Source of the DNA: Firmicutes bacterium UBA3920 | GTDB lineage: Bacteria; Bacillota; Clostridia; Caldicoprobacterales; Xylanivirgaceae | NCBI GenBank assembly: GCA_002386065.1 | Contig: DGES01000026.1 | Coordinates: 20,587-84,586, forward strand | Length of the DNA: 64,000 nucleotides | Direction: 5' to 3' | In this document: one piece after another, positions 32,468 to 41,878 of the stretch | Numbering within the stretch: position 1 is the stretch's first letter | Layout: the number at the start of each line of letters is the position of its first letter | Translations under genes and position numbers: made by a program | Notes under the pieces: model-generated | Seen by the model: only the letters and a program-made list of their open reading frames with translations | What the model was told of the DNA's origin: nothing | Databases searched by the model: none

Positions 32468-33883
32468 TTACATGAATTTTGCAAGTAATACAAATCTCAA
32501 AATAAATAATACTACAAATACATACATTATGGGATGAACTTCCTTGGCTTTACCTTTTACTATTTTAACTAATGAATAAAATATAAATCCTGCAGCAATT
32601 CCATTTGCTATACTATAGGAGTAAGGCATAAGAACCATTGTGACAAATGCAGGAAGTGCTTCTTCTATATCATCAAAATTTATATTCTTTATAGAACTCA
32701 TCATAAGTACACCAACTATTATTAAAGCTGGAGCCGTTGCAGCACTTGGTATAATACCTGCTATAGGAGCTAGAAATATAGAAATTAGAAAGAGTATTCC
32801 CACTACAACTGCAGTAAGGCCTGTTCTACCACCTTCACTCACACCTGCACTACTCTCTACAAAAGTTGTAACAGTAGATGTTCCAAGTACTGCACCTACA
32901 CATGTAGCTATAGCATCTGCCAACATAGCTTCATTGCCCCTAGGTAAATTACCTTCTTCATCTAGAAAACCAGCTTTGTTAGCCGTTCCAATTAAAGTCC
33001 CCATTGTATCAAACATATCTACTATAAAAAATGAGAGTATAACAGTAATCACAGATATTAAGCTGGCAAAAACTCCATTTCCCGTAGACAGCAATCCTTT
33101 AAAATCCATCTTCATAAACGTAGGCTTCAATGTTATCTCGCTAAGAGAAAAGCCAACGTTTACATTTGTAACTCCCATAGGTATACCTATTATAGTAGTA
33201 ATAATTATACCTAAAAAGAGAGCACCCTTAACTTTTCGAACCATTAGAATAGATGTAATTATAAGACCTATTACCGCAAGTAATATAGCAGGAGATGCAA
33301 AGTCACCAAATTCCAATACTTGAGATCCTGCATTGTTCACTGCTTCTATCATAGCAGCTTTATCTAAAACCTCAGCCTCATTTATTATGTCAATTATTGG
33401 TCCCTGATTGACGTGAATAATACCTGCATTATTAAAACCTACAAATGCAATAAATAGACCTATTCCAGCACTAATTGCATTTTTTAAAAAAAGAGGTATC
33501 GATTCGACAACAGCTTGTCTCACACCTGATAAAGTTATTATTATAAATATTATACCGGATATAAATACTGCAGCTAAAGCCTGTTGCCATGTATAACCCA
33601 GTCCAAATACAACACTAAATGTAAAAAATGCATTTAATCCCATCCCTGGTGCCTGAGCGAAAGGATAATTGGACATGATGCCTGTAAGTATACTACCTAC
33701 TGCAGCCGCTAAGCATGTAGCTATCATTACACTATGAAAATCCATTCCCGTTTGAGATAAAATATCAGGATTTACGAATATTATGTAAGCCATTGTAAAA
33801 AATGTGGTTATACCTGCTATTACTTCAGTTTTGATATCTGTGCCGTTTTCTTCTAACTTAAAAAAGTTATTCAATTTTTCCAT
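32468..33883 (-). CDS. pbuG: NCS2/AzgA-family purine (guanine/hypoxanthine) permease
   Basis: FFKLEENGTDIKTEVIAGITTFFTMAYIIFVNP N-terminus closely resembles PbuG/PbuO-type permeases. Polytopic, 471 aa. Gene symbol is tentative. Confidence 0.85.
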   Translation of the reverse strand: MEKLNNFFKLEENGTDIKTEVIAGITTFFTMAYIIFVNPDILSQTGMDFHSVMIATCLAAAVGSILTGIMSNYPFAQAPGMGLNAFFTFSVVFGLGYTWQQALAAVFISGIIFIIITLSGVRQAVVESIPLFLKNAISAGIGLFIAFVGFNNAGIIHVNQGPIIDIINEAEVLDKAAMIEAVNNAGSQVLEFGDFASPAILLAVIGLIITSILMVRKVKGALFLGIIITTIIGIPMGVTNVNVGFSLSEITLKPTFMKMDFKGLLSTGNGVFASLISVITVILSFFIVDMFDTMGTLIGTANKAGFLDEEGNLPRGNEAMLADAIATCVGAVLGTSTVTTFVESSAGVSEGGRTGLTAVVVGILFLISIFLAPIAGIIPSAATAPALIIVGVLMMSSIKNINFDDIEEALPAFVTMVLMPYSYSIANGIAAGFIFYSLVKIVKGKAKEVHPIMYVFVVLFILRFVLLAKFM

Positions 33884-33940
33884 AAAATTATTCCTCCTTC
33901 TTTTTTAACTTAGATTCCTTAGCCTATTATTTTCCTCCTC

Positions 33941-34115
33941 CCCAAAAATAATAAAGCACATGACCTTATTTTGAGTGAACATGTGCTTTATCATATATTC
34001 CGACTTAATAATCAGAATATAAAAATGCATTTAAACCACAATCCACTCATAGTAGAGCAATTTTCGGTTGCCCCGTAGAAACTCCCAGACCATATTACTG
34101 GGGATATATGAGTTG
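33941..34115 (-). promoter_or_regulatory. purine riboswitch, guanine class, with terminator expression platform
   Basis: Minus strand: ACTCATATATCCCCAGTAATATGGTCTGGGAGTTTCTACGGGGCAACCGAAAATTGCTCTACTATGAGTGG. P1 is TCATA/TATGA, and a C precedes UAUGAG at the specificity position. Downstream hairpin AAAGCACATG/CATGTGCTTT (33953-33989) plus U-run. Confidence 0.9.
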
Positions 34116-34316
34116 TGCTCTCTTGACATATTTATACTATCAAAACACTATAAAAAAGTCAATCATGTATTTGAACGTTTTTTTGTTTTTTGGATAAATC
34201 GTTCGGTTTTTATTTTTATGCGTTGAATCTCCAGCTTTTTTAAATATCCATAATCGATAAAAATACATGTCAGTGATAGATCAAAGCACTTTGCAAACAT
34301 ATCATTCCACCTTTAC

Positions 34317-34388
34317 CCATGCGTCCAGCAAGTCAATTATCCATGCGTCCAGCAAATCGATTATCTAGGTGTCCAGCAAATCGACTAA
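34317..34388. repeat. 3 x 24-nt direct tandem repeat in an ORF-free region
   Basis: CCATGCGTCCAGCAAGTCAATTAT / CCATGCGTCCAGCAAATCGATTAT / CTAGGTGTCCAGCAAATCGACTAA. Units 1 and 2 differ at 2 of 24 positions; unit 3 differs from unit 2 at 5 of 24. Confidence 0.8.
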
Positions 34389-34490
34389 CATCTTAAATTA
34401 AGATATTAGTTGCATTTTATTAATATTGGGTATATGTATTTATAGACGTCTAATTTATGAGTCAAGTCCATAATAGTGTGTAAATTTCCT

Positions 34491-34700
34491 CGGTATTCCA
34501 GTCAGCAAGATGTGGAACTTTTTACTACCTGCTGAACCGAAGCGTTTATGCCGCGAAAGCTGTTGATAATGAGTACATGGCATGTTAGGCTAATTGCCGG
34601 GCATTACTATACCGACATAGCCTTACCCCTGTAGGCAGAGGGATGCCCCTGATGCCTATAAACATGCCATGAGAGGCTCGTTGTCAACAGACCGTGGAAT
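34491..34700 (+). other. GC-rich, heavily base-paired element: candidate structured ncRNA (plus strand) or small palindromic insertion
   Basis: Nested long-range helices: 34560-34573 with 34677-34690 (14 bp, two U-G wobbles that only work on the plus strand); 34576-34586 with 34661-34671 (11 bp perfect); 34587-34590 with 34654-34657; 34599-34604 with 34643-34648. Also a 5' hairpin at 34491-34539. About 50% GC by hand count, against a much more AT-rich background. Confidence 0.35.
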
Positions 34701-34875
34701 AAATACGTAGGTAGTAGTATTAGGCAGAAGGACAAGATTACCAGGCATAAAAACTTCGAAATATTCCTAGAGGAATTGAGAAACCAGGAAGGTCTAATAA
34801 CAGATTTTGAGGAAGATAAAGTAAAAGTTGTTTTTAAAAATGGAATAGAAATTTAGGATTAGTTAATGACTACTG

Positions 34876-34919
34876 AATAGAGTCTATGAGAATATTTTAA
34901 CATCTGCATAGACTCTATT
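34876..34919. terminator. hairpin terminator downstream of the anti-sigma-like gene (also faces the plus-strand element)
   Basis: AATAGAGTCTATG (34876-34888) / CATAGACTCTATT (34907-34919), 13-bp perfect stem. Confidence 0.55.
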
Positions 34920-34927
34920 TAGTAAAT

Positions 34928-35704
34928 CTATTTAAGCTTAAATCTCACTATTTTCTTAATTTCTTCTAAATCTTCTGCATGAGCCAAAGAAGGATAAGCT
35001 TCTTTATTAAAAATCAAGCCTTTGTTCGATTCTAGAAACACCCAACGTTCTCCATCTGCTAGCCCATATTCTGCAAGCTCTAATAGTACCAACTCTTTCC
35101 CATTCTCCTCTCTAATAGAATTTTCATTATATGTTATGGGCATAAATATTCCTTTTCCACCTACAACCATTTGAGAAGAAATACTGGTCTCAGAGACATG
35201 GATATTTGTATCTATGGGACCTGGTAATAGAATTTTAACGGTGTTTCCTTCTACAAGATCTCCTCTTATAACATCAGTAACATTAATATAAGCGATAGCA
35301 CGATAATCTTTATATCCATCATAATCACATTCTATATTGCGAATATCATCCACAATGCCTTCAAAAGCAACTATTTTTAAATCAGCATATTTTTCTCCAA
35401 ATAATTCAGTTTCCATTAGCCATTCAATATCTCCACTACTTGCTACAGCAGGTGGATTCTCAACATATCTTACATTGACTCCCTTAGATAATTCAAGAGG
35501 AAGATTTCCATTATCGCTATTAAAAAAAGACATAGATATTGTTACAATCAAAGCCAAGCTAGCTAGGATAGCTGCAACTTTAAAGTAGAATATTGGTTTT
35601 TTACTTATAATTTTAGTATGTTCTTTTTCTCCTCTTGGTTCAGCCTCAATGATATATTTGTCATCAATGTCGCCAATAATATTCAAAAGTTTTCTATTTT
35701 TCAT
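34928..35704 (-). CDS. single-pass membrane protein, putative anti-sigma factor / sigma-associated protein
   Basis: Start overlaps the sigma gene stop (ATGA). N-terminal LLNIIGDIDDKYIIEAE motif, common in partners of clostridial ECF sigmas. One TM helix, then an extracytoplasmic domain. Confidence 0.55.
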   Translation of the reverse strand: MKNRKLLNIIGDIDDKYIIEAEPRGEKEHTKIISKKPIFYFKVAAILASLALIVTISMSFFNSDNGNLPLELSKGVNVRYVENPPAVASSGDIEWLMETELFGEKYADLKIVAFEGIVDDIRNIECDYDGYKDYRAIAYINVTDVIRGDLVEGNTVKILLPGPIDTNIHVSETSISSQMVVGGKGIFMPITYNENSIREENGKELVLLELAEYGLADGERWVFLESNKGLIFNKEAYPSLAHAEDLEEIKKIVRFKLK

Positions 35705-36264
35705 AATGAAATCCCTTCTTTCTCTAATTCTCTTTTCAGTTTTTTTCGAATTCTAAAGAGGATTGATTTTACTTTGCTATCAGTAAATCCGTAGTCCTCC
35801 CCTATTTCTTTAATACTGCTTCCGTACCAATAGCGGCGAACAAAAACTTTACGTTGACTTCTATCTATACCCCCAAGAAAATTATTAATTACTTCTATTA
35901 GGTACTTCTCGTCCATTATGTTTTCAACATCTGATTGGGCAGAAGGTATAGATTCTTCAAGCTCTGATAAAATCAGATCAATTTGTCCTCCACCACGTTT
36001 ATCTACAGTTCTTTTTTCTAGATAATTTAAGGAAAGATTACGGGTGATTTTGCCTAAAAAGGTGCGTAAATTGGAAGGCCTCGCTGGTGGAATTGCACCC
36101 CAGGCTCTCAAAAAAGTATCACTAACACATTCTTCAGCATCCTCATTATTTTGTAGAATTCTTATAGCTATTGTGTAGCAATATCTTGAATATTTTACCC
36201 TTACTTCACTGATAGCTATTTCTGATCGTTTCCAGAATAAATTAATAATTTTATCATCATCCAT
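35701..36264 (-). CDS. ECF-type sigma-70 family RNA polymerase sigma factor
   Basis: Region 2 (DAEECVSDTFLRAW) and region 4 HTH (SIKEIGEDYGFTDSKVKSILFRIRKKL), 187 aa. Confidence 0.85.
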   Translation of the reverse strand: MDDDKIINLFWKRSEIAISEVRVKYSRYCYTIAIRILQNNEDAEECVSDTFLRAWGAIPPARPSNLRTFLGKITRNLSLNYLEKRTVDKRGGGQIDLILSELEESIPSAQSDVENIMDEKYLIEVINNFLGGIDRSQRKVFVRRYWYGSSIKEIGEDYGFTDSKVKSILFRIRKKLKRELEKEGISL

Positions 36265-36267
36265 TTA

Positions 36268-36295
36268 AACACCTCCCTAGGAACACCTCCCTAGG
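36268..36295. repeat. perfect 14-bp tandem duplication covering the sigma gene Shine-Dalgarno
   Basis: AACACCTCCCTAGG AACACCTCCCTAGG. On the minus strand this gives CCTAGGGAGGTGTT twice, immediately 5' of TAAATG. Confidence 0.9.
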
Positions 36296-36321
36296 TTTAA
36301 TTTTAAAAGCCTTCACTTATA

Positions 36322-36349
36322 TACACCGAAAACATTGCATACGGTTGCA
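36322..36349 (-). promoter_or_regulatory. candidate ECF-type promoter upstream of the sigma gene
   Basis: Minus strand TGCAAC-N15-CGGTGTA resembles ECF -35 (xGxAAC) / -10 (CGT) patterns. Weak evidence. Confidence 0.25.
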
Positions 36350-36604
36350 TTATTTTAAAATACGTTTCAAAAAAATAATGACATTCTTTTATGTCACTAT
36401 AATACTCCAACAATATTCATTTTTAAATAAATTCTGCCTCTTTATCACTGCACACCCCTTTTTCAATTTGCACACCCATATGCACAGTACCTTTTAGGAT
36501 AATTAAATTGTATCAATCTCTGCAAGATTATATCTATGTTCTTACCGTCTTTGATACAATTCTATAAGCAGAAATTTATATGTTGGTAGATCCCATTTAG
36601 CAGA

Positions 36605-36627
36605 AAAGCCCTTATATCAAGGGCTTT
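36605..36627 (-). terminator. intrinsic terminator of the defence-like cassette
   Basis: AAAGCCCTT / AAGGGCTTT hairpin. On the minus strand it is followed by TTTTCTGC. Lies about 175 nt downstream of the 979-aa gene. Confidence 0.6.
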
Positions 36628-36802
36628 ATAGGATTTAGATTTAATTTAAGGAATATCCTTAATTAAATACTCTATTGAAATTCAAACAAATTTAACTAAA
36701 TTTATTCTACTATATTTCTTATTGCACACTTATATGATACTTGATGATACTTGTCATATGAATAATTAAAAAGTATAGGAAAAATTAAAAGGTTTCAAAA
36801 AT

Positions 36803-39742
36803 CTAGCCTTCAAATTCTTCTATAATTCTTTCTACATAAGCCAATCGTCCACGACCTAAAGCAGCATAATAAGTAGCGTGTTTTCTACAAGCATCTATCG
36901 CTTTCTGTAAAGCTAGTTCGCCATAGTCTTCATAGATAGCCTTTAAAAAATATCTAGTAGAGTATTCATTAAGAGTTCTTGTATATCTTTCACCATTCAT
37001 CATGGCATAAAAAGCTGAAATATAATCTCCTGCTGAACCAGGGTTCATATTGACTTTATTCGCAATTTCTTCTTTACCCTCTGTTCTCCCCAACTCTCCT
37101 TTAAAGACTTTTTTAGAAATTATGTAAGCATAAGCCACCATTTCACTAGTGATACTATTATTCTCTATATACAGATTAGCCCCCGTATCTATTTCCTCTA
37201 AAGTCGATTTCAATTTATCAAATTGTAGGATTAACCATTTGAAATTCTGTAAATATAACTCTGGATTAAATACATCTGTTTCTATAGAATGTAATATCCT
37301 TCTCGCGGTGCTAGTCTTACGACTTGTATACCATTCAAGTTCATAACCATATATTTTTTCTATTTCATCCTTCAAGAATTCTAACCTCTTAAAAGTTTCT
37401 GGTTGATGAACATAAATACCGATGCGTAAAATATTTTGTTTCATAATTTGAAAAAATATATAATAATCACTATTTCCAATTGATACATCATAGCTATTAG
37501 AATAAGAGGGAGTTTGAGAAGCTATATCTTCACCTCGGTCAATGGACTTGCAGTAATCGACAAAACTGCTCCAAAAATTAAATCGTTGCTGTTGGGTGTC
37601 TGTTAGCTCTTCATTTTTAAGTGAAGAGTTATTAGCTGTTCCAACTATATCATTTGTTGTAGGTTCTGGAATTTCTGGCACCTCATCTCTTTCTTCATTT
37701 ACAAAACCAATATGGAGTAATTCATTTTTTTGTTCTGCTGTAAAGTTGAGACCCCACCTACTTTCCATAAATTCTAAAAGTTTTAGCCCTCTATTTAATA
37801 TCGATTTAGGAGTCCAGTCTTCTTCTATAGCCACCTCTATCTCTGAATGCGATCCATTAATATAACCTCTTCTTTTTGATGAAGGGTTCTTTTTATCAGG
37901 GAAACTATCATTTTGCAATGAAGAATTTATGCTCTGCGCAAGGGGTAATAGATTACCTAAACTAGCGGACAAAATCTTTATTTCATCTTCATTAAAATGA
38001 CGAATTTGATTACGCCAATACCATTTAGTTGGTGTCTGCGGCAAAATATGTTCAATTGTAATTTTGTCTTTTTCAACCTTTGAAAACATCTGCCAGTCTA
38101 TTTTTTGAATATTGTTCTTAATAGATAAGTGGCTTTCGTACTCATATAAAAAATATCTTAAATCTCGCCAGCCATAAAAGCCTAAACCAGAATCGAATCG
38201 TCTATCTGTTCTAGCTATAAAGCTTGCTATAATTGAATTTAAGTCATTATCTATTGTTTCCATTAAATCATCTGCCACAGAGTTTAGACTTATTTTTCTC
38301 TGTAAAACATCTCTTGCCTTATTGTAATAATAGCTACTTTTATAGCTGGCATTATATCCTGCCATTCGGAAACAAAGAAATATAAATCGTTCTATTTCTT
38401 TAAAAAGTAAAACACGTTCCTCCGCCCCAACTTCATTTTTGAGAGACAAAGATATAGCTACTAATGGTCTAAAATATCCAATTCCAATTCTATTTAATTT
38501 ATTAATCCATTGTTTTTCCTCGTCAGTCAATTCATCACTATCATGGGGAAAATAAGTATAATACCAGTATTCTGCGATCTCCTTTAGACTATTCACATAA
38601 GCATTTATCTCATTTGGAGCTAATTCACTTACTAGGATTGTTTCCTCTTCCGTATTTCCTATTACATCCTCATCTTCAAATTCTTCATCTTCAGTTTGAG
38701 GTTCAGCTATTTCATTCTCAATTACTACAGGATGCTTATTAAATACATTTTTTGAAGAGAATTTATTCAATAAAAATTTAATGTAGTCATCGCCTTTTCT
38801 ACGAGTATATTGAAAGTATACCGTCCAATGAGCCCTTAAAAATTCATCATCAGATAAAGGATGGTTTTGATTTCTTCCTAGTTGATAGTAGATTTCTTTC
38901 CAAGCATCATTGATATTCTTTCTTAATTGTCCTTTATCCTTATCGTCTAACTGTTCATCATCAAACAAAGTTGTTAAATAAATAAGTCTATTTTTTAAAA
39001 GTTCTAAATTACTAAGTTTTTTTCCTCTATTATTCATAGTTTCAAAGGCCACAAAAACATCGTAATCATCTTCAATTTCATGTAAATTAAACATTAATTT
39101 TAATGTAAGCCTTTTGTATAAACTTTCAATTCCAGGCATTCCTTCTACTTCAAACAAAGATTCAAGGTTTCTAGCAAAGAACTTTTTTGCATACATAAGA
39201 TTTTGAGTATAATAAGTTTCAACAATTGTTCCACCAAATTGTTCTTCAAATATTTTATATTTTAAATAATTATAGCTAGGATTATCTAGCTCATATCCAA
39301 ACATATATGTTTTAATCAGATTTTCTGGTGGACGGCTCTTCACTATGTATTTTTCTGTAATAGCTTTGATAGATTCAAACCCTATGAATATCTGGTCATC
39401 AGATTTTCCTTGGTTTTCTTCTAGCTTCTTAATAAAAGATATTATCTCATACATAAGTATAGAAAACGTGGTTAATCTTTGCTGACCATCTACAATATGA
39501 TATGCTTTATAACCAATATCAATCAACCAGCTGTCTTCTCCCCATAAACATAAATCTTTTTTATTAACTTCTTTTAAAGACAAAAGTCCAGTATAGTGGT
39601 ATCTATCTTTATGAAGATTTAATAAATCTTCCCAGAAATCTACTAGCTGTTCTTTCTTCCAAGCATATCCTCTTTGATAATCTGGTATTCTAAACAGTCT
39701 ATTTTGAAATAATGTTGATAAAGAAATTAATTCATTTGACAT
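36803..39742 (-). CDS. 979-aa GmrSD-like fusion: DUF262 (ParB-like NTPase) + DUF1524 (His-Me/HNH nuclease) + DUF4268-like + unassigned C-terminal module
   Basis: RIPDYQRGYAWKKEQ and DGQQRLTT (DUF262). ITIEHILPQTP...LGNLLPLAQSINSSLQN (DUF1524). FNFWSSFVDYC...YIFFQI...LRIGIYV...LEW segment (DUF4268-like). The last ~130 aa are not recognised. Confidence 0.85.
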   Translation of the reverse strand: MSNELISLSTLFQNRLFRIPDYQRGYAWKKEQLVDFWEDLLNLHKDRYHYTGLLSLKEVNKKDLCLWGEDSWLIDIGYKAYHIVDGQQRLTTFSILMYEIISFIKKLEENQGKSDDQIFIGFESIKAITEKYIVKSRPPENLIKTYMFGYELDNPSYNYLKYKIFEEQFGGTIVETYYTQNLMYAKKFFARNLESLFEVEGMPGIESLYKRLTLKLMFNLHEIEDDYDVFVAFETMNNRGKKLSNLELLKNRLIYLTTLFDDEQLDDKDKGQLRKNINDAWKEIYYQLGRNQNHPLSDDEFLRAHWTVYFQYTRRKGDDYIKFLLNKFSSKNVFNKHPVVIENEIAEPQTEDEEFEDEDVIGNTEEETILVSELAPNEINAYVNSLKEIAEYWYYTYFPHDSDELTDEEKQWINKLNRIGIGYFRPLVAISLSLKNEVGAEERVLLFKEIERFIFLCFRMAGYNASYKSSYYYNKARDVLQRKISLNSVADDLMETIDNDLNSIIASFIARTDRRFDSGLGFYGWRDLRYFLYEYESHLSIKNNIQKIDWQMFSKVEKDKITIEHILPQTPTKWYWRNQIRHFNEDEIKILSASLGNLLPLAQSINSSLQNDSFPDKKNPSSKRRGYINGSHSEIEVAIEEDWTPKSILNRGLKLLEFMESRWGLNFTAEQKNELLHIGFVNEERDEVPEIPEPTTNDIVGTANNSSLKNEELTDTQQQRFNFWSSFVDYCKSIDRGEDIASQTPSYSNSYDVSIGNSDYYIFFQIMKQNILRIGIYVHQPETFKRLEFLKDEIEKIYGYELEWYTSRKTSTARRILHSIETDVFNPELYLQNFKWLILQFDKLKSTLEEIDTGANLYIENNSITSEMVAYAYIISKKVFKGELGRTEGKEEIANKVNMNPGSAGDYISAFYAMMNGERYTRTLNEYSTRYFLKAIYEDYGELALQKAIDACRKHATYYAALGRGRLAYVERIIEEFEG

Positions 39743-39768
39743 TTAGGCACTTCCTCCCTTCGATGACA

Positions 39769-40653
39769 TTAGTCCTCATTATTCTCTATTTCCCTTAAAG
39801 TTCTTCCTTTTTCATCTAGCCACATAATTATTCCATTAGCACTAGCATATGTCACAAAACCTGCTGCAGCGGATGGGCTAGTAAAAAGAGTGTCCTCAAT
39901 CAACACCCCATCTTTAACCCTATCAGTATATTTGTTTCTCAAATTAAGTATAGTTTCTGGGCAACTTTTAGTAGGACTAACTGAAACCGATGCATCTTTA
40001 TAAACAACAAATCCTTCATTTGTCCTTCTACCCTTGGCTTCAGCTTTAGTTGTTTTCAAGACTAACAATGGCTCATCATTAATTTCAACATCTTCTTCTA
40101 CCTTATGAGTTGGCTTTTCCTCTAATGAGTCAAAAACCCTATGCCCGAATGTCCCCATAACTATTTCAGCATATTCTATAAATTCTTCTAGTTCACTCTC
40201 TTTTTCTTCAGTTACATGGCCAGAGGCTGGGTTTACATTGTTTTTAACATTATATCTTTTAGCATCTTTGGCTAAATTAAAAAATCTGTTTTCTAAATAA
40301 CTTATCTCAGTTGGTCCAAAAGAATTATTTGATGTAGTAAAAACAATTGCTTCCATCCAATAGTCTTTGTTCTCATCCCTTTTATGCTCCTGTAGACGAT
40401 AGAGAATACCTTCACCATTTTTCCTCGCTCCTGCTTGACCTATATAAACAATATTTTCTCCTGTATCATCAGATATCCCAAACAAGAAATATACTCCACT
40501 TTGTTTAAGATCTTCCCGTTCTTTACATTTATCAAGTTCTGTCCTAGGTATTTTATATGCAACTACTGTCCAGTTAGCGAGAGTGCATTTTATCCTTCCA
40601 ACAGCTGTCCCATCCATAAGAAATAAATTAATACTTTTACCACGTACCGCCAT
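39769..40653 (-). CDS. GIY-YIG-like nuclease with C-terminal DUF4357-like domain
   Basis: GVYFLFG...IVYIGQAG...LQEH...ISYLENRF (GIY-YIG pattern). C-terminal GFVVYKDASV...FTSPSAAAGFVTYASANG resembles DUF4357. SD AGAGGTGAG upstream. Ends 26 nt before the next gene. Confidence 0.78.
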   Translation of the reverse strand: MAVRGKSINLFLMDGTAVGRIKCTLANWTVVAYKIPRTELDKCKEREDLKQSGVYFLFGISDDTGENIVYIGQAGARKNGEGILYRLQEHKRDENKDYWMEAIVFTTSNNSFGPTEISYLENRFFNLAKDAKRYNVKNNVNPASGHVTEEKESELEEFIEYAEIVMGTFGHRVFDSLEEKPTHKVEEDVEINDEPLLVLKTTKAEAKGRRTNEGFVVYKDASVSVSPTKSCPETILNLRNKYTDRVKDGVLIEDTLFTSPSAAAGFVTYASANGIIMWLDEKGRTLREIENNED

Positions 40654-40731
40654 ATTTGCTCACCTCTTTATATACACTTTAAATTTATTGCTTTATATAA
40701 AATTGATGATTTAACCAATTTAGTTATTTTC

Positions 40732-41097
40732 TTAGGCATAAGAATCACTTCCTAGCGGTTTAACATTATTGGCTTCAAGCATTTCATTTATTTCATAAAT
40801 GCTATTTACAGCACACGCCCCTAATATACATTTATAAATATACCCCTCTTCCTTCATGGAGTTAAGTTTAAAATCTGACTTATCTAATAACATTTCAGCT
40901 TCGGGTACTGGCAACTTTAAACCGACACATAAGCCCAATATAGATTGTATCGAAGTGGGATATTCTTCCTCATTCCTTAAACGCTGAATAGTTCTTTCAC
41001 CTACAAGTGAAACATCAGCTAATTTTTTATTAGTCATTTTTCGTTCTTCCATAAGCATTACTAATGTTTCTGCAAATGATCCTGGATACCTACGCAT
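40732..41097 (-). CDS. XRE-like helix-turn-helix protein (likely real start inside the chimeric 286-aa ORF)
   Basis: FAETLVMLMEERKMTNKKLADVSLVGERTIQRLRNEE is an N-terminal HTH typical of small Firmicute regulators. The start (M at 41097, alternatively 41160) is uncertain because the frame is open up into the hsdM remnant. Confidence 0.45.
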   Translation of the reverse strand: MRRYPGSFAETLVMLMEERKMTNKKLADVSLVGERTIQRLRNEEEYPTSIQSILGLCVGLKLPVPEAEMLLDKSDFKLNSMKEEGYIYKCILGACAVNSIYEINEMLEANNVKPLGSDSYA

Positions 41098-41302
41098 AGC
41101 ATCAGCTTTTTTCTTTGCACTCTGTATCTGATTGAGAAGAGAAGAATTATGAGCATTCATCTCAAATGAAAACTCTACGCTTGAAGGTTGTATCTCAGCT
41201 TTTGCTAGAAAATAAGAATAATTCTTTTGATTATAATATACCGATTCATAGATATAACCTTTTTTAAATACTAAACAGCATCCATCAATATTTGCCAAAG
41301 CT

Positions 41303-41878
41303 TGATCATAGACTCTACCATTGTAAGACTCTAATATTTCAACTAACGTTCTCACTATGCTTGAAGGTGTGTAGAACTCCCCCGCTCTTCTCCCTTCTTG
41401 TTCTGCAAACATTGCTAGACAATACTCATAAGTTCTACCTAAAACATCCTTTTTATCTCTATAATCTGATAATGGGATATTCGAAAATATGTCTACTACT
41501 TCCCCCAATCTTCTCTTGTCTAATTTAGGTCTAGAGAAGTTTTTCGGCAAGATCCCTTTTAATCTGTTATTCTTTCTTTCTATTGCCACCATAGCTTTGC
41601 CTTATTTCTGGCTTGTTAGAATGTTTTGCTATATAGTCCCATCTGGCTTCCTCTGGCACATAGAATATGTTTTCTACCAAATATTCATCTCTTTCCTCCT
41701 CAAACCCTGCGCCTTCTTCTACTAGCTCTTGGTATTTCTCCTCGAAGCTATCTGATATATATTTTAAAAATATAAGTCCCAATACTACATGTTTATATTC
41801 AGAGGCATCTATATTACCTCGTAATTTATCCGCTGCCTGCCAAATTTTCTTTTCAAAACCTAAGTCTGCTGTATTCAT
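41303..41878 (-). pseudogene. hsdM: type I restriction-modification methylase (HsdM) remnant: frameshifted and 3'-truncated
   Basis: HsdM N-terminal domain (KIWQAADKLRGNIDASEYKHVVLGLIFLKYISD). The frame breaks near 41602-41604: removing one A from GAAATAAGG restores PEIGKAMVAIE. It continues as LKGILPKNFSRPKLDKRRLGE...EFYTPSSIVRTLVEIL...RVYD, then loses similarity exactly where motif I (DPACGSGG) should begin. Confidence 0.8.

Follow-up and report, generated by a model that had tools for sequence, protein, structure and literature searches.

Two sequence signatures, RSB and CS-6, are the literature hallmarks of single-strand origins (sso; PMC5703833, PMC4598088). RSB, published as 5'-TTATGCCGAGAAAATTT-3' (PMC4598088), is part of the palA/ssoA type of origin. 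Such an origin measures approximately 160 nt, takes up its fold in the single-stranded state, serves as a recognition and priming site for RNA polymerase, and functions in one orientation only (PMC5703833; PMC4595007). Single-strand origins have also been described outside plasmids, namely in ICEBs1 (sso1) and, as sso-like sequences, in further ICEs (Wright et al. 2015, PMC4595007). Here we compare with these systems a GC-rich folded segment found in a 64,000-nucleotide stretch of DNA, hereafter the window, to which all coordinates refer unless another sequence is named. An initial annotation had proposed the segment as a candidate novel structured RNA. That reading was not borne out, as the core is homologous to ssoA/palA, which is reported to act as folded single-stranded DNA, and the segment probably does not represent a new RNA. 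In our judgement it is very probable that positions 34460 to approximately 34733 constitute the orphaned right end of an IS256-family element, carrying at 34540–34707 an ssoA/palA-homologous module of approximately 170 nt.

The element is real, conserved and made up of several helices. G+C had been counted correctly at 85 of the 170 nucleotides in 34531–34700, which is exactly 50%, the flanks having 32% and 28% and the window as a whole 34%; likewise, no open reading frame of 60 or more amino acids occurs in 33884–34927, the longest there being 52 amino acids. Folded as RNA, the plus strand of 34480–34710 reached −91.3 kcal/mol with a z-score of −6.9 (none of 200 shuffled sequences did as well), and the z-score of the minus strand was −5.2. 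Folding of the core (34540–34707) as DNA gave z-scores of −6.9 for the plus strand and −4.9 for the minus strand. Two helices of 14 and 11 bp that the annotation had proposed were recovered independently by a repeat finder, and a further hairpin which it had placed at 34876–34919 is present at 34871–34924, with arms of 18 nt that are 94% complementary.

Using an alignment of 20 distinct copies, RNAalifold together with a curated structure yielded five helices on the plus strand. The basal helix P1 (34545–34555 with 34693–34703), which bears the diagnostic sequence and had been overlooked, has 99% of its alignment cells paired. In P2 (34560–34574 with 34676–34690) the proportion is 99.7% over the 20 copies and variation is confined to changes between Watson-Crick and G.U pairs, and in P3 (34576–34586 with 34661–34671) it is 97%. 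P4 (34588–34591 with 34595–34598) was likewise obtained from RNAalifold and the curated structure, and P5 (34599–34608 with 34639–34648) shows compensatory changes at three pairs (G-C to A-U, U-A to C-G and C-G to U-A). Over all helices 95% of cells are paired vs. 34–51% when the partners are slid by 1–3 columns. Three helices proposed from the sequence of the window are thereby kept across 20 relatives, namely the 14-bp helix 34560–34573/34677–34690, the 11-bp helix 34576–34586/34661–34671 and, with compensatory changes, the helix 34599–34604/34643–34648. Family conservation is absent from the proposed extension 34587–34590/34654–34657 and from the small hairpin 34607–34610/34617–34620. The proposed 5' hairpin (34491–34539) is also unconserved in the family; in the lineage of the window it occupies a variable spacer (34495–34539, plus strand) that is rich in indels, missing from some copies and only 26% identical between lineages. 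Further afield, P2 is compensated in the plasmids pC194, pT181 and pE194, and P3 retains complementarity with a wholly unlike sequence both in pC194 and in locus L047 (UGUAUAUGGC/GCCAUAUACA).

The folding strand was first argued from two T-G pairs in the 14-bp helix, and the argument holds for the family, P1–P3 containing 86 G.U cells and not one A.C cell. Conservation of P1–P3 within the family is too high for double changes. All 11 of the 11 variable pairs alternate between Watson-Crick and G.U on the plus strand with pairing of that strand preserved, and such an 11-to-0 split has, by our own calculation, a probability of approximately 0.0005 if transitions had no strand preference. Since the one-sided helix changes all keep G·T on the plus strand and none gives A·C, it is the plus strand that folds. 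A contig from the same digester sample (L009, 6755–7237) differs from the window by seven substitutions, all within 34513–34662 and several of them breaking helices, with no substitution in the 288 nt to the right; these differences probably reflect the mixing of different IS copies during assembly and not real variation at the locus.

The folded core carries counterparts of ssoA/palA sequences on its plus strand. An RSB-like box, TTATGCCGCGAAAGCTG, occupies 34546–34562, is identical to the published RSB at 13 of 17 positions and varies little or not at all across 21 copies. Its partner arm, CGTGGAATAAA (34693–34703), pairs with 34545–34555 in P1. Counted from the ATGCCG of RSB, TTGGAATAAA lies at +141 to +143 in the palA plasmids pC194, pT181 and pE194. 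The succession in pC194 is TTTATGCCGAGAAAA, TAGCGT at +65 and TTGGAATAAA at +143, pT181 and pE194 having all three elements as well with the hexamer at +50 to +64, and that in the window is TTTATGCCGCGAAAG, TAGCCT at +70 and GTGGAATAAA at about +145 to +146. The TAGCCT hexamer (34618–34623, plus strand) lies in the apical domain and agrees with the CS-6 consensus TAGCGT at five of six positions, an imperfect match; CAGCGT stands in its place in other lineages. Its distance from RSB is +70 nt here vs. +50 to +65 nt in the palA plasmids, and whether it is single-stranded depends on the correct apical fold.

A covariance model made exclusively from IS-family copies (R1) matched palA of pC194 with 43.1 bits (E approximately 1e-9), of pT181 with 35.6 bits (E approximately 6e-8) and of pE194 with 28.5 bits (E approximately 4e-6), all three E-values being rough because calibration was shortened. 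The matches span model positions 1–168 and retain P1–P3 by compensatory changes. In 118 kb of searched sequence R1 found nothing further beyond the palA elements and the window's own element, and it did not match pUB110, the sso of which we take to be of the ssoU type. The predicted DNA fold of pC194 palA has the same architecture as the window core. Based on the order and spacing of the markers, together with the full-length R1 matches, we assign the core to the ssoA/palA family. A diverged, stand-alone sso core is present in L047 (858–1005, minus strand), where RSB and its partner arm are nearly identical and P3 and the apex are replaced by a different complementary sequence. It lies in a 2.5-kb stretch that has no ORF above 94 amino acids and no transposase.

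Copies of the element were found in 32 other loci, 70–96% identical to it and all sharply bounded at 34460 (AGTCAAGTCC...). A scan of species-representative genomes with a 20-mer gave one further copy, in a Tissierellia MAG (96% identical over 34456–34732, with unrelated flanks), and a metagenome scan gave 31 further loci, mostly from anaerobic digesters and bioreactors. Among 27 copies 24 distinct left flanks were seen. Look-ups of two flanking proteins moreover led to contigs from many independent assemblies that end inside the element, and their breakpoints coincide with differences between the window copy and another copy. To the right of approximately 34733, most other copies run into a gene of 403 amino acids on the opposite strand, which matched Transposase_mut in Pfam with an E-value of 3e-132. 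Full copies measure 1551–1593 bp, have imperfect terminal repeats and consist of the left repeat (GATTAAGTCTATATAATGGTGTAAA...), the transposase, approximately 250 nt of non-coding sequence and the right repeat (...TTTACACACTAATTTGGACTTGACT).

The window copy corresponds to positions 1–287 of a full copy of 1591 bp, that is, to the part between the stop-codon region and the right terminal inverted repeat (IRR). The IRR, AGTCAAGTCCATAATAGTGTGTAAATTTCCTCGGT (34460–34494, minus strand), is approximately 90% identical between lineages and matches the left repeat ...TTTACACCATTATATAGACTTAATC of full copies. At the other end, a remnant of the transposase stop-codon region (34720–34727, minus strand; reverse complement CTGCCTAA) can be aligned with the stop codon that ends the 403-aa transposase in L036 and elsewhere, and homology to full copies ceases about 6 nt past it. 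Neither a transposase gene nor the left inverted repeat (IRL) was found in or near the window copy. The fragment (34460–34733, approximately 275 nt) is a solo right end in which the missing transposase was oriented on the minus strand, and L048 is a second orphan copy. A MITE-like palindromic insertion had been offered as a fallback explanation. This was right insofar as the DNA is repeated and present in many copies; however, the fragment is no MITE, because it possesses only one terminal inverted repeat, and we therefore regard it as an orphan IS end. On the right, the fragment stops a few codons into the transposase 3' end. The 96% identity to a transposase-linked copy suggests that the deletion was recent and that the solo copy is a recent relic. 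Target-site duplications of 8–9 bp were seen in none of 10 full copies, for which metagenome contigs crossing a 1.6-kb repeat may be chimeric. An association with the ECF sigma pair or the nuclease cassette, which had been raised as worth checking, was not seen, and the flanks of other copies are unrelated.

Several observations were made at the ends of the IS. The right tip bears an outward TTGACT (34460–34466) and the left tip GATTAAGTCTATATAAT (e.g. L021 1930–1959); circularised with about 6 bp between them, the tips would form a putative TTGACT-N17-TATAAT junction promoter. A junction promoter of this kind is expected of copy-out-paste-in elements. At the truncation point, 34735–34758 is an inverted partial copy (13/15) of CGAAGCGTTTATGCC (34538–34552, the 5' arm of RSB), and since RSB was originally described as a site of plasmid recombination, the orphaning deletion may have gone through this copy. 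In L036 (296–2342), an ORF and a tyrosine recombinase of approximately 299 amino acids lie directly beside a full sso-bearing IS copy, and from its translation only the ORF would be read as a rolling-circle-type (IS91-family) transposase.

The fragment lies between a purine permease gene and an anti-sigma gene, in a window of chromosome-like content (pur operon, guaA, tRNAs). Neither a rolling-circle plasmid nor an ICE context was found at the locus, and we know of no regular single-stranded phase for a chromosomal location. This setting is a matter of context and has no bearing on the homology of the sequence. On one side, a purine riboswitch aptamer (34030–34131, minus strand; 81 bits with Rfam) precedes a Xan_ur_permease gene (32468–33883) and a purE-purF-purM-purN-purH-purD operon, and between the IS end and the promoter of this riboswitch there are three tandem direct repeats of 24 bp (TTAYCCATGCGTCCAGCAARTCRA, 34313–34384). 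The repeat motif recurs nowhere else in the window at up to two mismatches (0.06 occurrences expected by chance) and could be an iteron-like or regulator-binding array. On the other side, an open frame at 34662–34858 (plus strand; ...KITRHKNFEIFLEELRNQEGLITDFEEDKVKVVFKNGIEI*) has no start codon before 34776 and is followed by the hairpin at 34871–34924. At contig ends, gene callers report it as a partial gene of 59 amino acids. Pfam returned no match for it, and a gene destroyed by IS insertion and deletion may have left it behind as a 3' remnant. Beyond it, between the pur operon and guaA, an island at 35701–41878 (minus strand) holds the ECF sigma and anti-sigma pair, a 979-aa GmrSD_N/GmrSD_C/DUF4268 protein, a DUF4357 protein and two type I hsdM fragments, and looks like a decayed defence island. 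The window also holds a 6S RNA, a T-box, a lysine riboswitch and two tRNAs.

The absence of any match to a riboswitch or other RNA family, as stated in the initial annotation, was upheld by covariance models up to an E-value of 10. Rfam searches at gathering as well as permissive thresholds returned nothing for the window element, full IS copies, L047, the IS of Geobacillus described below or five plasmid loci. Group II intron domain 5, hammerhead and hairpin ribozymes, k-turns, retrons and omega/bridge-RNA were considered by eye and set aside, each for want of its defining sequences, of Rfam support or of an adjacent gene. BLAST of 34300–34930 gave no match in phages and, in plasmids, only a 35-nt match to an Anaerococcus plasmid that led nowhere; viral contigs scanned with a 20-mer from the element yielded none. 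The earlier rejection of cis-regulation of a downstream gene also stands.

A structured ncRNA could nonetheless be made from the plus strand, antisense in full copies to the 3' end of the transposase mRNA, and affect expression of the transposase or work in trans. RNA would suit the fold and the asymmetry in G.U pairs as well as single-stranded DNA does, and two promoter-like sites could be invoked. One is the TTGCAT-N17-TATGTA pointed out initially at 34410–34438, upstream of the element, of which the sequence is present but the score is weak and under the threshold of the promoter scanner. The other, TTGAYA-N17-TGnTAGGCT, is conserved on the 5' arm and is also weak (8/12 for TTGATA-N17-TGnTAGGCT), below what the scanner reports; the scan of the element for sigma-70 promoters and intrinsic terminators found nothing. 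However, the helices begin approximately 85 nt inside the IS end, and because each insertion has different DNA upstream of that end, the copies have no promoter in common whose transcript could include P1, while an RNA from the internal site would begin only after the 5' arms. The homologues are reported to work as single-stranded DNA, an Rfam match is absent, and the polarity of the motif relative to the transposase is reversed in the Geobacillus relative. We therefore consider an ncRNA quite improbable and favour a single-strand origin within the IS.

Mean pairwise identities among six IS lineages bear on whether this origin is maintained. At transposase third codon positions identity is 50%, and for transposase amino acids it is 83%. 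The values are 97% for the RSB arms, 94% for P3, 90% for the IRR, 62% for the apical domain and 26% for the spacer. From the contrast between the RSB arms and the third positions we conclude that the module is under selection and, as judged from these identities, the sso base is under strong purifying selection exceeding that on the terminal repeat. Among the closest plasmid-borne IS256 relatives (approximately 63% amino acid identity), the one sampled from Paenibacillus and that from Thermovirga have a mere 40–70 nt between stop codon and IRR, so the module is not essential for transposition. That such close relatives manage without it, that the window copy is an orphan chromosomal fragment, and that RSB was historically a recombination hot spot (PMC5703833), which favours capture, would all suit an inert palindromic passenger or relic, i.e. 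an sso captured once from a plasmid and hitch-hiking without function in the IS or in the window. Conservation of the RSB arms and P3 between lineages in which synonymous sites are saturated, decay of the directly adjacent spacer, and helix substitutions that all preserve pairing make such a passenger very improbable.

Its position adjoining the terminal repeat, along with which it is conserved, could alternatively mean that the module acts as duplex DNA, in the form of sub-terminal binding sites for transposase or a host factor, an insulator or a terminator. The module also occurs, however, on rolling-circle plasmids without this IS, no T-run terminator was found, and a duplex site leaves the strand-asymmetric conservation of G.T and the compensatory changes unexplained. 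We regard this as the least probable of the explanations considered and highly unlikely.

Folding of the plus strand most likely happens as single-stranded DNA primed by host RNA polymerase. By homology with the experimentally studied ssoA, we infer that the module has a priming function and that it serves either the IS itself or its carrier replicons. The plus strand, once single-stranded, would fold into a long imperfect hairpin (P1-P2-P3 and the apical domain), to the base of which (RSB, P1/P2) host RNA polymerase would then bind. A short primer RNA would be made, ending in the apical domain near the CS-6-like hexamer, and its extension by DNA polymerase would convert single-stranded into double-stranded DNA. 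A start set by the conserved but weak TTGAYA-N17-TGnTAGGCT motif would lie approximately 28 nt ahead of the CS-6-like hexamer on the template arm.

Why an IS should maintain an sso is a matter of speculation. Our preferred, though doubtful, proposal is that the lineage keeps it because copy-out would yield a single-stranded circle of one IS strand, on which the sso would prime the complementary strand. If this holds, the circle strand would be antisense to the transposase, and the left end would be the cleaved donor end. Transposition of the IS256 type is described as proceeding via double-stranded circles, which counts against a single-strand origin in the IS. Alternatively, the sso may benefit plasmids or ICEs that carry the IS. 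Literature searches on structured RNA or sso in IS256, and on the motif strings, found nothing relevant, and an sso inside an IS256-family element appears to be a context unreported in the literature searched.

An IS256-family relative in Geobacillus offers a further view of the module. Its insert of approximately 180 nt contains the strings CGTGGAATA and ATGCCGCGAAAG, which suggested the RSB box of staphylococcal palA, and the comparison was tested on pC194. The element, in Geobacillus thermodenitrificans pGeo12b (L052, 1949–2160) and also on Parageobacillus plasmids, bears a circularly permuted version of the unit formed by P1, the internal loop and P2, in which a variable hairpin caps P1 and P2 is left open. 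The permuted hairpin has transposase-sense polarity, opposite to that in the lineage of the window, and a distinct hairpin comes after it. Either this IS family became associated with an sso-like module a second time, independently, or the first association has been rearranged.

BLAST with the Geobacillus region located the permuted hairpin, approximately 60 nt long, in 207 plasmid records from Proteobacteria, Actinobacteria and Firmicutes, the hosts including Pseudomonas, Burkholderia, Arsenophonus, E. coli, Salmonella, Vibrio and Arthrobacter. It follows the formula GTCAAGGGG-AC-CGTGGAATACC-[variable hairpin]-GGATATGCCGCG-AAAG-CCCCTTGAC, its cap hairpin covaries, and it is present, unannotated, in up to three copies per plasmid. 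Leading-region-type or relaxase genes are its neighbours (L055–L059). As its orientation with respect to relaxase genes varies (it differs between L056 and L058), we make no claim on transfer-strand logic. The hairpin is absent from Rfam, and its core string appeared in no paper of the literature searched. In addition to the single-stranded-circle proposal, and with the same doubt, we put forward that the permuted RSB hairpin is an undescribed cross-phylum signal for priming or promoter activity on single-stranded DNA. Its occurrence on many Gram-negative and actinobacterial plasmids suggests that the priming module extends well beyond the Gram-positive rolling-circle plasmids from which it was defined.

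For annotation, these results remove a false lead to a novel ncRNA. Origins of the ssoA type are recognisable from RSB, CS-6 and the TGGAATAAA partner, and are left unannotated by Rfam and in the plasmid gene tables examined. A single-strand origin under strong purifying selection in an IS with a DDE transposase is unexpected, and raises the question of whether copy-out-paste-in elements, or the replicons that carry them, depend on dedicated priming signals on single-stranded DNA.

Among systems with comparable properties, the Frpo/ssi promoters of conjugative leading regions are folded single-stranded DNA recognised by host RNA polymerase for a primer or transcript. The stem of the window element holds a -35-like TTGAYA; points of difference are its -10-like hexamer, which is weak and under scanner thresholds, and the lack of similarity to the published Frpo sequences of F and ColIb-P9. 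The sso elements of ICEs are a precedent for plasmid-type single-strand origins on integrated mobile elements (PMC4595007). However, sso1 of ICEBs1 resembles the sso of pBAA1 and not ssoA. ICEs moreover have a known rolling-circle and conjugative single-stranded phase, unlike IS256-type elements, for which we know of no single-stranded DNA phase. With its IS256-family relatives the sso-bearing lineage shares the Transposase_mut DDE transposase, imperfect terminal repeats of approximately 25–35 bp and tips of which the right one has an outward -35 that faces a TATAAT on the left one, and it differs from them in an extra structured non-coding region of approximately 250 nt between stop codon and IRR. 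The closest comparison is with ssoA/palA (pC194, pT181, pE194 and, by literature, pMV158/pLS1). The window core departs from these origins in 4 of 17 RSB and 1 of 6 CS-6 positions, in the unrelated sequences of P2, P3 and the apical domain, and in its location in an orphan IS256-family fragment on a chromosome and not on a plasmid. It shares with them a non-coding, strand-specific, imperfect hairpin of approximately 165 nt that has RSB at its 5' base and, at like spacing, the TGGAATAAA partner at its 3' base, and its apical domain holds a candidate counterpart of their CS-6 hexamer.
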